A DNA stretch of 64,000 nucleotides from NCBI GenBank assembly GCA_040386195.1, contig JAZKFV010000005.1, forward strand, positions 40,961 to 104,960, written 5' to 3'. Shown in pieces: positions 30,302 through 56,194 of the stretch. The stretch is from Pseudomonadota bacterium (GTDB lineage Bacteria > Pseudomonadota > Alphaproteobacteria > Rickettsiales > UBA1997). The notes beneath the pieces are model-generated. The model saw nothing but the letters and a program-made list of their open reading frames with translations. It had not been told where the DNA came from and ran no database searches. Positions within the stretch are counted from its first letter, which is position 1. Each line of letters starts with the position of its first letter. The position numbers and the translations under genes are program-made.

Positions 30302-30821
30302 AATTATTATTTCTAATTTTAGTGGAAGATTCTGGCGATTTTTTGATTTTTAGAAATTCAATTCTGCCTAGTTTTTTGGCGTATAAAAATGCTTTTGATT
30401 TCACCGCATCATAAAAAAATTCATCGCGATCGCAAACAATCAGCGGAACTAGTTTAATAATCTCGCGCCAGTTTTTCCATTTATGAAATTGCAAAATATT
30501 ATCCGCACCAATAATCCAATAAAATTGATAATTGGGAAATTGTTTGGTAATTTTTTTCAGTAGATCAATTGTGTAAATGCTAGCAATATTTTTTTCCAAA
30601 TCCTTAACTAAAATCTGCGGATATTTTCTAGTAATTTCCTGACAATCCTCAATTCGACTTACGACTAACGACTTACGACTTACGACTAATTTTAAAGGAT
30701 TTCGTTTAGCTGGAATCCACCAAATTTGCTTTAAACCCAAGCGTTTTTTAGCTTCTAAACTAATATGAATATGTCCTTGATGCGGCGGATTAAAACTTCC
30801 GCCCAATAAACCAATTCTCAT
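30291..30821 (-). CDS. nadD: Nicotinate-nucleotide adenylyltransferase
   Basis: Has MRIGLLGGSFNPPHQGH. I prefer the internal Met at 30821, which gives an ATGA overlap with the ubiA stop. The gene contains a family B heptamer run and ends inside repeat A4. Confidence 0.85.
   Translation of the reverse strand: MRIGLLGGSFNPPHQGHIHISLEAKKRLGLKQIWWIPAKRNPLKLVVSRKSLVVSRIEDCQEITRKYPQILVKDLEKNIASIYTIDLLKKITKQFPNYQFYWIIGADNILQFHKWKNWREIIKLVPLIVCDRDEFFYDAVKSKAFLYAKKLGRIEFLKIKKSPESSTKIRNNNLSS
30655..30688. repeat. Family B heptamer run, copy B1 (single arm, inside the nadD CDS)
   Basis: Sequence is CGACTTACGACTAACGACTTACGACTTACGACTA, about 4.5 units of TTACGAC. It is read in frame as KLVVSRKSLVVSR. 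Confidence 0.85.
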
Positions 30822-31657
30822 CCCAAAATAATTGCGGTTAAAACGATAATTCCTACCCAAAAATTGGCTTTGAATTTTTCTAAACAATTTTTTCCATCTT
30901 GAAAATTACAAGTTTTAATTTGGCAAGTTAATTGCGCTGCAGCTAGTAAAATCAATGGGAAATAGGCAAATTTAAAATTGGAAATTATTCCAAGTAGCAT
31001 CAATAATGAAAAGTAAATTGCGGTTAAAATGAATAAAATTTTCTGCGGATTTTTTCCAAATTTTATCGCGGTAGATTTGACACCGATTTTTAGATCGTCC
31101 TCAACATCTTGATAAGCGTAAAAGCTGTCGTAAATTACCGTCCAAATCACGCCGGATAAATAAAGTAGAAAAGCTGAGAAAGTTATTCTGCCCAAAATTG
31201 CGATGCTGCTAAATAAAATTCCTAAATTAAAAGTGAGCCCAAGAAAAATTTGCGGATAAAAAGTTATGCGTTTCATCATTGGATAAAAAGCTACGAAAGC
31301 CAGAGAAATAAAGCCTAAAATGATGGTTGGTAAATTGAATTGGAGCAGAATTAAAAATGCTAGACTGAGCAAAATTGCTAAAAAAACTATTGCCAATTTT
31401 ATCGAAATTGCATTTGAAGCAATTGGACGATTTTTGGTGCGTTCAACATTTTTATCAAAATCGCGATCCCAAATATCATTAATAATACAGCCGCTTGAAC
31501 GCATTAAAAATGCGCCAACAAAAAATAAAGCTGCAAAATAAATCACATCAATATTTTGATTTTTAGAAGCCAAAGCTAAACCAAACAAACATGGCAAAAA
31601 CAATAGCCAAGTGCCAATTGGTTTGTCGATGCGGATTAGTTTTAGATAATTTTTCAT
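30818..31657 (-). CDS. ubiA: 4-hydroxybenzoate polyprenyltransferase
   Basis: Has the UbiA prenyltransferase motif NDIWDRDFD and a polytopic layout. 279 aa. Confidence 0.85.
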   Translation of the reverse strand: MKNYLKLIRIDKPIGTWLLFLPCLFGLALASKNQNIDVIYFAALFFVGAFLMRSSGCIINDIWDRDFDKNVERTKNRPIASNAISIKLAIVFLAILLSLAFLILLQFNLPTIILGFISLAFVAFYPMMKRITFYPQIFLGLTFNLGILFSSIAILGRITFSAFLLYLSGVIWTVIYDSFYAYQDVEDDLKIGVKSTAIKFGKNPQKILFILTAIYFSLLMLLGIISNFKFAYFPLILLAAAQLTCQIKTCNFQDGKNCLEKFKANFWVGIIVLTAIILG

Positions 31658-31671
31658 TGATGCGGGTAATT

Positions 31672-31727
31672 GACTTACAACTCTTAACCGCTTAAAACTT
31701 ACAACTTACTACTCACAACTTACAACT
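31672..31727. repeat. Family B-related degenerate heptamer run, copy B2 (single arm)
   Basis: Sequence is GACTTACAACTCTTAACCGCTTAAAACTTACAACTTACTACTCACAACTTACAACTA. It lies between the ubiA start and the pccA start. Confidence 0.6.
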
Positions 31728-31735
31728 AAAAAATT

Positions 31736-54378: not shown

Positions 54379-54481
54379 TTTATTATCTTGTTGGTTAAAA
54401 AAATCTGGCACAGAATAAATATTGTTTTATATAAGTGTCGTTAAAAAACATCTCGCATCCGTAAAGATTTTGTAAAAACCA

Positions 54482-55042
54482 ATGTTTTCAATCGTTGAAT
54501 CACTAATTATTCTAGCAATTTTGTCACTCAATTTTGGCGTGATAATTTGGCTTAAAAACAGAATTGCCGTGGTTTCGTCGGTAATGTTGATCAATTTGAT
54601 TATCATTTTGCTTTGCGCCATCAGCATTGCCGATTATCAAATCTTAAAAGAATTAATTATCGCCATCACCATCTATTCGATTACAATTTTAACTTTGATT
54701 TCCAATACTAATCACATCGACCAAATCAGTTCTAACAAACCTTTAATCGGCGGCAAATTTAATCGTCATTTAATTTTGATTATCACTTTAATGATTAGCT
54801 GCAGCGTTTTTTATTTGAGTCAAAGCATCAAACAACAATCAACTTATACCGCCACTTCTCAGCTAGAAAAAATTATCGGAACCAATAAGGAAGCGCCAAT
54901 TTCTGCCGCAAAATCTGAGCAAAAAAATCTCAAAAATAATGTGCTGTTTAAAAGATCAACTGATGCAATTCTGATTATTGTCGGCGTGATGGCAATTATG
55001 CTTTTAGGCAGCAAATATCGTGGTGTGGAGTCGAAGATTTAA
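54482..55042 (+). CDS. Hypothetical integral membrane protein
   Basis: 186 aa with about 5 hydrophobic segments. No motif recognised. Confidence 0.45.
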   Translation: MFSIVESLIILAILSLNFGVIIWLKNRIAVVSSVMLINLIIILLCAISIADYQILKELIIAITIYSITILTLISNTNHIDQISSNKPLIGGKFNRHLILIITLMISCSVFYLSQSIKQQSTYTATSQLEKIIGTNKEAPISAAKSEQKNLKNNVLFKRSTDAILIIVGVMAIMLLGSKYRGVESKI

Positions 55043-56076
55043 GATTTTTTGAGCAGCGCAAAATTGATAAAAGCCGCCAGCAAAAGTTCTGAATCAAAAC
55101 TGCTATTTTTACATTTAATTTCCAACTCTTGAAATTTGACGAGCAGATTGCCAATTGCTTTGGGATTCCAAATATTTAAATGTCTTTTAAAAGCCGGTTG
55201 TTGTTTAAAAAAGATATTCTGAATTTTCATTTCCAAATCCAAATTGCTACCATTTTCAATATTACTTTTCACCAAAATCAACTTGCTAAAATAACCGCTT
55301 AGAAACCTTAAAATAGTGATTGGCGAGGTTTTTTCAGCGAAGAGTTTTTCTAAAAAGAAAATTGTTTTTTTAGCATCACGATTAGCAAATTCTTCAACCA
55401 ATTGGAAAGCCGAAATTTCAGCAATATCAGCAATATTTTCTTGCAAAATTTCCACAGTGATGTGGCGTTTTTCGCCCATAAATAAAGCTAATTTGTCAAT
55501 TTCATTTAAAATAATTTGGCGATTTTTACCAAATTTATTTAACAAAATTTCAATCACTTCATTATCAAAAGTAAAATTTTGTTCTTTAAATTTTTGACGA
55601 ATTATTGCCGAAACTGTCGCCGCATCATCTTCATAACAAGCAATAACGGCAATATACGGCGAGCTTTCAGCGAATTTTCTTAAGCTAGAACTTTTATCTA
55701 AATCACCAGCAGTAATTAAAATAAAATTATCACCAACAATCTGAAAATCTTTCTGTTTTTTGGGTGCTTCAAAAATCATCTTCAAACTTTCAGTAGTTTT
55801 ATTTCCACCATCAACATTAATTAACTTTCGCCCGCCGAGCATTGAAATTGCTGCAAATTCATCGCCAAGCAAACCTTTATCTTCATCAAATTGTTTTTCA
55901 TTTAACGACACCACTAAAAACGGATCATTCAAATCCGCCACAATTGAGCTGGCAATTTTCTTAGCACGAATCGAAACCAATCCAGATTCTGGTCCATAAA
56001 TTAAAGCCGCAAAAATTTCTTTGTTAGCAGCAATATTATTGATAAAAGCGTCGGCTTGATAAGGCTTGATTTGCAT
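55039..56076 (-). CDS. holA: DNA polymerase III subunit delta
   Basis: 345 aa. The N-terminal …ALIYGPESGLV… and the overall HolA-like three-domain length and pattern fit. Confidence 0.7.
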   Translation of the reverse strand: MQIKPYQADAFINNIAANKEIFAALIYGPESGLVSIRAKKIASSIVADLNDPFLVVSLNEKQFDEDKGLLGDEFAAISMLGGRKLINVDGGNKTTESLKMIFEAPKKQKDFQIVGDNFILITAGDLDKSSSLRKFAESSPYIAVIACYEDDAATVSAIIRQKFKEQNFTFDNEVIEILLNKFGKNRQIILNEIDKLALFMGEKRHITVEILQENIADIAEISAFQLVEEFANRDAKKTIFFLEKLFAEKTSPITILRFLSGYFSKLILVKSNIENGSNLDLEMKIQNIFFKQQPAFKRHLNIWNPKAIGNLLVKFQELEIKCKNSSFDSELLLAAFINFALLKKS

Positions 56077-56081
56077 AATTT

Positions 56082-56194
56082 AGTCGTAAGTCGTAAGTTA
56101 TAAGTCGTAAGTTAATTATTCTATTTGTATTAAAAAAATAATAAATACTTCTTACGACTTACGACTTACGACTTTTGACTCACGACTTACAACC
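56082..56194. repeat. Family B heptamer hairpin element, copy B5 (long AT-rich loop)
   Basis: Left arm AGTCGTAAGTCGTAAGTTATAAGTCGTAAGTT, about 40 nt of A/T-rich sequence, then right arm CTTACGACTTACGACTTACGACTTTTGACTCACGACTTACAACC. It fills the holA/prfB divergent intergenic region. Confidence 0.85.

Follow-up and report, generated by a model that had tools for sequence, protein, structure and literature searches.

The 64-kb window analysed here (64,000 nucleotides of contig JAZKFV010000005.1, assigned to the Rickettsiales) contains tandem arrays of a heptanucleotide, GTCGTAA on one strand and TTACGAC on the other, at five dispersed loci. Their main regularity, overlooked in an earlier note on this DNA, is that the TTACGAC-sense strand lies next to start codons and the GTCGTAA-sense strand next to stop codons. 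The neighbours of the arrays are housekeeping genes, namely nadD, a gene of the UbiA family, a pccA-like carboxylase gene, a gene for a short-chain dehydrogenase (SDR), rho, holA and prfB. The window has a G+C content of 35.8%, and the proteins nearest to those it encodes are found in metagenome-assembled genomes (MAGs) labelled Pseudomonadota, Rickettsiales or Rickettsiaceae. Shine-Dalgarno (SD)-like tetramers are scarce: only 2 of the 57 open reading frames (ORFs) of at least 100 amino acids in the window have one at positions -20 to -4, and the upstream regions of the window ORFs are rich in A, C and U and poor in G. The 3' end of the 16S rRNA nevertheless keeps CCUCC and terminates in CCUCCUUU.

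The arrays are real and far from random. The 14-mer GTCGTAAGTCGTAA has 22 matches in the window at up to two mismatches, compared to 0.08 expected from 100 shuffles, and all 22 are confined to the five loci, each of which the earlier note had placed correctly. Every array or arm holds 3-6 units in direct tandem repetition with a period of 7 nt and with variant units interspersed, as is characteristic of the TAACTGA class of repeats discussed below. The variants deviate from the consensus at 1-2 positions and include those already listed (GTCGTTA, GTTGTAA and GTTATAA) as well as four more (GTCATAA, GTCGTGA, GTCAAAA and GTCGCCA). The elements are 70-110 nt in size. Where two arrays form an inverted pair, the arms are complementary at 83-88% of positions and hence constitute terminal inverted repeats, a trait of miniature transposable elements with inverted repeats (MITEs).

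The loci were compared with orthologous regions of the relatives L120-L127 and L332-L336 and with one metagenome contig, L128. Within the coding sequence of nadD, five GTCGTAA-sense units (30652..30690, minus strand, with TTACGAC on the plus strand) lie in frame and encode VVSRKSLVVSR, in accordance with the 21-nt in-frame repeat VVSRKSL recognised earlier; an in-frame TAA is avoided through the variant GTCGTTA. The 7-residue periodicity at this site is kept in relatives with other units, GTCGTGA in L120 and L121 and TAATGGT in L335. In an alignment with distant NadD homologues the array adds no length, and an in-frame insertion in the manner of the Rickettsia palindromic elements (RPEs) was dropped as an explanation for this reason. 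The array upstream of pccA (31691..31726, plus strand) is solitary, devoid of G and degenerate (TTACAAC TTACTAC TCACAAC TTACAAC), and ends 9 nt before the ATG at 31736. Both loci had been described as single arms (at 30655 and 31672), but neither is a broken hairpin: one is a coding segment, the other a conserved leader.

The third locus is an intercistronic hairpin (46342..46412, minus strand) between the stop codon of rho (46417-46419) and the start codon of the SDR gene (46329-46331). In RNA sense, a 5' arm of 4 units (46385-46412) begins 4 nt past the rho stop, a 22-nt core (46363-46384) forms the hairpin loop, and a 3' arm of 3 units (46342-46362) serves as the putative leader 10 nt ahead of the SDR ATG. 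The fourth is a hairpin in the trailer of the 16S rRNA gene (48083..48174, minus strand; arms 48090-48117 and 48140-48167, 22-nt core 48118-48139), located ~60 nt past the 16S 3' end (48236) and ~150 nt ahead of the rho ATG. At the fifth locus, the holA leader array (56083..56110, minus strand; TTACGAC TTATAAC TTACGAC TTACGAC in holA sense) stops 6 nt short of the ATG (56074-56076), and the prfB leader array (56152..56193, plus strand, 6 units) ends 4 nt before the ATG at 56198-56200. The AT-rich centre of 41 nt between them (56111..56151) contains TAGAATAATTAA, resembles the array-free intergenic regions of L332 and L333, and is presumed to be a shared promoter region. This locus had been counted as a full hairpin (at 56082). 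The inverted pair is indeed present; since the arrays flank the AT-rich centre between divergent start codons, however, the locus makes more sense as two separate leaders of divergent genes than as one transcribed hairpin.

The geometry of the arrays is regular. Taken together with arrays that end 10, 8 and 6 nt before the start codons of ggt, the NDUS4 gene and nuoI in relatives, leader arms are found 4-10 nt from the ATG at seven genes, in one fixed orientation and with SD sites nearly lacking, which is again a trait of the TAACTGA class. The opposite strand, GTCGTAA, carries TAA in all three frames, and in five hairpins between tandem genes the GTCGTAA 5' arm begins -1 to 12 nt past the stop of the co-oriented upstream gene. 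The complete layout of such loci therefore reads stop codon, 5' arm, centre of 11 or 22 nt, 3' arm, TAAT(W)n and ATG.

Predicted RNA folds of the inverted pairs have free energies of -38.2 kcal/mol (46 kb), -55.9 kcal/mol (48 kb) and -38 to -44 kcal/mol (56 kb), corresponding to z-scores of -7 to -10 relative to shuffled sequences (-7.4 for the 46-kb and -9.6 for the 48-kb hairpin). The sequence that comes after the stem in RNA sense is UUUUGUU at 48 kb and UAAUAAAUCU at 46 kb. A consensus scan flagged no intrinsic terminators at the hairpins; its promoter and terminator counts for the window equal the shuffled expectation, and the scan is therefore uninformative. The comparison with Rfam suggested by the earlier note returned no family at the gathering thresholds in the window other than the 16S gene, and with relaxed thresholds the hairpins match just generic miRNA-precursor models, far under the respective cut-offs.

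Slippage and constraint among relatives

Further copies with arms of tandem heptamers are found in L121, L122, L128 and L335/L336. The family is hence dispersed, as the earlier note had claimed, and extends beyond the window. Slippage adds or removes single units of an array: over 17.5 kb, L335 and L336 share 99.74% identity, and their alignment has a single gap, one TTACAAC unit in the 3' arm of the gyrB-ggt hairpin, which bears out the earlier prediction of slippage and variable arm length. Arrays also come and go between related genomes. The pccA array is missing in L120 and L121, and the holA and prfB arrays are missing in L332 and L333, where the site is empty. As a separate observation, a gene of ~1 kb with a Laminin_G_3 domain lies between ggt and the NDUS4 gene in L336 (17574-18610), where the 99.7%-identical L335 has a heptamer hairpin instead (17567-17643).

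The pccA leader region, including its unit variants, is identical at 51 of 52 nt between the window and L335, compared to 65% identity at the third codon positions of pccA and the UbiA-family gene. For the holA leader, a comparison of the window with L122 shows 22 of 24 positions of the TTAC-AC skeleton retained (by our count from the alignment) and position 5 changed in 4 of 4 units, such that the position of the array is conserved while its units have drifted; units are homogenised within an arm. In the tandem-gene hairpins, G has been lost in 11 of 20 leader-arm units and the paired C in 2 of 15 units of the 5' arm (Fisher p = 0.016), a test that is only suggestive because the units within an array are not independent. 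The difference suggests that depletion of G in the leader is favoured over base pairing.

Distribution and known repeat classes

More than 119 loci in representative genomes contain (GTCGTAA)3; they come from at least 8 phyla, including Cyanobacteria, Bacteroidota, Chloroflexota, Gamma- and Alphaproteobacteria, Planctomycetota, Patescibacteria and others, and dozens of other heptamer array types are present in the same loci. In viral contigs, GTCGTAA arrays were found at 5 loci, compared to 41 and 50 for two shuffled control heptamers and 107 for TAACTGA, all of these counts being well above chance for a 21-mer. The polarity of the arrays is not trivial: opposed arrays within 150 nt of each other are ordered GTCGTAA...TTACGAC without exception (26 of 26 outside the window, 29 of 29 including it). 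Among solo arrays in other phyla, those nearest to a gene 3' end are GTCGTAA-sense by 51:4, those nearest to a 5' end TTACGAC-sense by 14:9; this test is based on heuristic ORF calls, and any ORF that enters a GTCGTAA array is bound to end in it. Many loops in other phyla hold GC-rich mini-hairpins of their own or terminator-like stems. The spread of one element across phyla by horizontal transfer was considered and rejected, as the loops are unrelated between phyla and the window has no long homology to the 119 loci. A motif common to all heptamer types (ACT/AGT, or a GTC motif as for cold shock proteins, Csp) was likewise given up, the numbers being too small.

Reports of heptanucleotide arrays beside start codons go back to 1990 for cyanobacteria; Beggiatoaceae and Bacteroidetes were added later. 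The short tandemly repeated repetitive (STRR) sequences of heterocystous cyanobacteria consist of units such as CCCCAGT, TTGGTCA and CAACAGT. To our knowledge, no mechanism has been established for heptanucleotide arrays at start codons. The TAACTGA repeats of marine Beggiatoaceae, Cyanobacteria and Bacteroidetes are found mostly in one orientation, a few nucleotides from starts without ribosome-binding sites (MacGregor 2015, PMC4679880), and binding proteins of the S1, Csp or CsrA type have been proposed for them (PMC4679880). Heptamer repeats are also described at Nostoc start codons (bioRxiv 10.1101/2022.06.06.494920), and heptanucleotides are the most abundant class of long simple sequence repeats (SSRs) in many prokaryotes (Mrazek 2007, as cited in PMC4679880). 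An inverted repeat built from a heptamer had seemed an unusual design to the earlier note; heptanucleotide tandem arrays have already been described as STRRs, TAACTGA repeats (PMC4679880) and long SSRs, and arrays of arbitrary heptamers are common. While the class is known, a literature search found no published name for the GTCGTAA/TTACGAC family itself, the only hits being noise from primer sequences. The arrays are a lineage-specific, hairpin-forming heptanucleotide SSR family with the skeleton TTAC-N-AC, kin in kind to STRRs and TAACTGA repeats.

The resemblance to TAACTGA repeats is close. Both have a period of 7 nt, 2-6 units per set, interspersed related variants and about one G per unit; in both, the forward orientation ends a few nucleotides from starts without SD sites, a few copies overlap ORF ends or sit within ORFs in an open orientation, and strains differ by indels in steps of 7 nt. 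Translational roles have been proposed for them, too. The unit differs, however (TTACGAC/TTACAAC instead of TAACTGA), as does the Rickettsiales-like host, so that the two are of the same kind yet different families. About half of the copies described here are moreover paired with a complementary array into long, core-bearing hairpins, whereas only one inverted repeat was seen among the 170 sets of the TAACTGA genome (PMC4679880). With STRRs and the long SSRs of Mrazek the family shares dispersed intergenic tandem heptamers, several unit types per genome and growth by slippage, which is accepted for those repeats; the conserved core, the fixed order of arms and the stop/start geometry were not found described for them.

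RPEs and MITEs are the palindromic mobile elements known from Rickettsia and other bacteria (review PMC10969869). Common features are a host from the Rickettsiales and short, dispersed palindromes that are intergenic except for one coding copy and vary in presence between relatives, one of them with a flanking duplication and an empty site. RPEs, compared here by description only, are nonetheless ~150 bp long, code for a conserved peptide and lack heptamer periodicity; the nadD array is without their additional length, and a second hairpin family of the window, with arms TGTCATCCTGAGCG, is far more RPE-like. Repetitive extragenic palindromic (REP) sequences, including the BIME and REPIN-RAYT systems, are also intergenic palindromes that often lie between co-transcribed genes, and REP/BIME elements act as stabilisers of mRNA 3' ends or partial terminators. 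In contrast to these, the arrays have no GTAG-type head, and their arms are microsatellites of variable length; no RAYT gene turned up in the window, although no search was aimed at it.

Candidate functions of the arrays

We favour the reading, at a probability of about one half, that the arrays are SD-independent leaders whose paired form gives a stem-loop between cistrons with a possible role in translational coupling or in 3'-end protection, and that they evolve by slippage and by occasional copying of whole hairpins. In mRNA sense, the last 30-45 nt ahead of the start codon consist of the G-poor (UUACNAC)n followed by UAAW(n), and the array would act as an unstructured, SD-independent ribosome-loading leader, probably bound by S1 or another protein with an oligonucleotide-binding (OB) fold. 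Where the upstream gene is co-oriented, the (GUCGUAA)n arm lies at or just past its stop codon, with UAA in three frames, and the intercistronic RNA could fold into a long stem-loop with the stop and start codons at its base. Such a stem-loop would be likely to protect the upstream 3' end or to cause partial termination there. Initiation at the downstream start would depend on an upstream ribosome that terminates and melts the base of the stem, that is, on translational coupling. Whole hairpins would in addition spread in a MITE-like fashion. The lineage offers compact and comparable loci that combine the stop-arm-core-arm-ATG geometry, measurable purifying selection on one leader, asymmetric loss of G, a slippage event and the copying of hairpins. 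In combination, these loci make the leader and translational-coupling hypothesis testable and extend the phenomenon to an SD-free alphaproteobacterium.

Several points weigh against this reading. A stem of -38 kcal/mol with its end only 10 nt ahead of an ATG would be expected to hinder initiation and not to help it. Two of the copies do not suit a leader role: the one in the 16S trailer is separated from the nearest ATG by ~150 nt, and the one in nadD is part of a coding sequence. The arms of holA and prfB evolve near the neutral rate outside their skeleton, and the asymmetric loss of G carries the dependence between units noted above. Arrays are missing at pccA and at holA/prfB in the relatives named above, which implies that these genes work without them. 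In other phyla, the tie of solo arrays to gene 3' ends is stronger than that to 5' ends. The same 13-nt duplication that flanks the 48-kb hairpin is found in L124 around an unrelated filler (see below), hence the duplication may predate the hairpin. Finally, we infer every functional step of the model: leader function and translational coupling, but also that the elements are transcribed throughout, that ribosomes load on the leader, and how copies are made.

A possible, though rather improbable, alternative is that the elements are selfish or neutral palindromic mobile elements similar to MITEs, REP sequences or RPEs, with heptamer microsatellites as terminal inverted repeats; their position at ORF boundaries would then reflect tolerated sites without any role in expression. 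The core speaks for mobility. Four hairpins with short loops, located at unrelated sites (rho-SDR, the 16S trailer, nuoH-nuoI and downstream of nuoI, the last two in L128), have a sequence of 22 nt, GTCAAACCGAnnTCGGAAnGAC, in common; one of them was found by searching with the core itself. The 48-kb copy is an insertion of ~105 nt relative to L123 and L334, both of which have an empty site with a single copy of the 13-nt sequence TAAAGGCGATAGT; in the window, this sequence is directly duplicated on the two sides of the hairpin (48070..48082 and 48175..48187, from the alignment with relatives). Also in line with a mobile element are the presence and absence of copies among relatives at pccA, holA-prfB and rho-SDR, and the fixed order of arms (29:0) that is expected of terminal inverted repeats. 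The second palindromic family of the window behaves like RPEs, including an in-frame insertion in the SDR gene, and nesting is seen both for this family within the loop of a heptamer hairpin (L032) and for a heptamer copy of L128 within a larger palindrome. The copying of whole core-bearing hairpins to unrelated sites, which resembles that of MITEs, is partly shown by these data and is shared by the leader model.

Other observations weigh against a selfish element. The pccA leader array is conserved far beyond neutral sites, the core is missing from solo arms and from the divergent 56-kb pair, the spacing to the ATG is regular at 4-10 nt, and the loss of G is asymmetric between the arms. The flanking duplication is found at one copy only: none was seen at the 46-kb and 56-kb copies, and L124 carries both 13-nt copies around an unrelated filler of 21 nt without a hairpin. 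No transposase turned up, though no search for one was made. A scan of a metagenome collection for the core pattern returned only one contig, L128, which indicates that the core-bearing subtype is rare in that collection. If the arrays were only tolerated junk, their value would be smaller and consist in a case of microsatellites as inverted repeats of a small mobile palindrome.

It is unlikely, in our estimate, that the elements function primarily as intergenic stem-loops for which any hairpin serves, be it in termination, in processing by RNase or in the stabilisation of 3' ends, as with REP/BIME or SPRITE elements, the periodicity being a by-product of slippage and quasi-palindrome correction. 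Such a role would agree with the replacement of hairpins at the same place in relatives: the hairpin downstream of rho differs in each of the window, L123, L124 and L334, and instead of the heptamer hairpin that lies downstream of 16S in the window, L123 and L124 carry other hairpins, placed 40 nt more distally. It would also agree with the UUUUGUU that follows the 16S-trailer stem, with the GC-rich mini-hairpins or terminator-like stems in many loops of other phyla, and with the variants GTCGTTA/TAACGAC, which mirror each other across both arms of the 48-kb hairpin. Solo arrays, such as the leaders of pccA, tatD and yajQ, and the divergent pair are on the other hand unable to form a transcribed hairpin, copies within operons (nuoH-nuoI) require read-through, the arm variants mostly break pairing (A-C mismatches), and the simple terminator scan flags none of the hairpins.

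A bolder version of the leader model seems doubtful to us. The arrays would offer regularly spaced docking sites to an OB-fold protein (S1 or Csp-like) that binds with one domain for every 7 nt and replaces SD pairing, and the paired form would be a switch, in which the anti-leader arm, transcribed first and located at the upstream stop, masks the leader until an upstream ribosome or a binding protein opens it. The polarity across phyla (29/29 and 51:4) would then be the signature of a general, hitherto undescribed system of SD-independent initiation and coupling.

Phase variation, in which slippage of units in a leader or arm switches the adjacent gene on or off within a population, is very improbable. 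The polymorphism of one unit seen between near-identical strains speaks for it, and SSR-dependent switching in 5' untranslated regions is known in Haemophilus and Moraxella; the neighbours here are nevertheless housekeeping genes (rho, holA, prfB, pccA, nuoI, ggt, 16S) and not surface or virulence genes, the arrays are short (3-6 units), and the distance from the end of the array to the ATG is constant whatever the copy number.

Hardly credible is the proposal that UUACGACUU recruits ribosomes, in place of an SD site, by pairing with the universally conserved 16S segment AAGUCGUAA (1492-1500), which would account for the presence of one heptamer in many phyla: the 16S rRNA of the window does contain AAGTCGTAACAAGGTA (48271-48286) and (GTCGTAA)3 is found in at least 8 phyla, but this segment is paired within helix 44, a match of 7-9 nt to an rRNA of 1.5 kb is not significant, and the G, whose partner would be C1496, varies more in the leader arms than any other position. 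The idea that the heptamer is special through a universal 16S target (positions 1494-1500) was therefore rejected, as shuffled control heptamers are as common or commoner in viral contigs (41 and 50 compared to 5) and the co-occurrence of dozens of other heptamer types in the same loci means that the distribution needs no special rRNA target.

A second hairpin family and neighbouring features

The second hairpin family, unrelated to the heptamer arrays, has arms TGTCATCCTGAGCG..AGCGAAGGATCTC and is found at six places in the window (8927-9019, 18004-18110, 19363-19450, 30197-30310, 45866-45959 and 52784-52891). The copy at 45866-45959 is an in-frame insertion of 27 residues (CHPERSEGSLAARHEPKPNSSHEILRCTQDDK) in the SDR gene relative to its orthologues, which is RPE-like behaviour. 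The family varies within one species: between nadD and tatD, L125 carries a full copy (10529-10647), and L120 (10529-10582) and L121 have an internal deletion of 65 nt. In L032, a gammaproteobacterial MAG, a TGTCATCCTGAGCG hairpin is nested in the loop of a GTCGTAA/TTACGAC hairpin (4869-5035), such that both kinds co-occur in a distant phylum. A further case of nesting is seen in L128 just past nuoI, where a hairpin of GGCGTAA units with the conserved core (1297-1417) is centred in a larger palindrome, CTAATTATAGATAATAAAAA / TTTTTATTATCTATAATTAG. This arrangement suggests that the copy either inserted at the apex of an existing hairpin or grew out of it.

The 16S rRNA gene of the window (48236-49732, minus strand) is unlinked, with 23S, 5S and tRNA genes not found in the 64 kb, and rho lies directly downstream of it, an arrangement retained in L123, L124 and L334. 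A near-consensus promoter-like site (TTGACA-16 nt-TATATT, 50074-50101, minus strand) is located ~340 nt upstream of the 16S gene. The prfB gene (release factor 2; 56198-57302, plus strand) starts with the ATG at 56198, and its main ORF begins at 56253 in a different frame. This change of frame is as expected for a programmed +1 frameshift, and a CTTTGA site is visible in the relative L122. A second type of heptamer leader without G, TAACCAT/TAATCAT, is found immediately upstream of start codons, with two units before the ORF at 5867-6751 (window ~6752-6776, minus strand) and four before yajQ in L335 (11823-11856).

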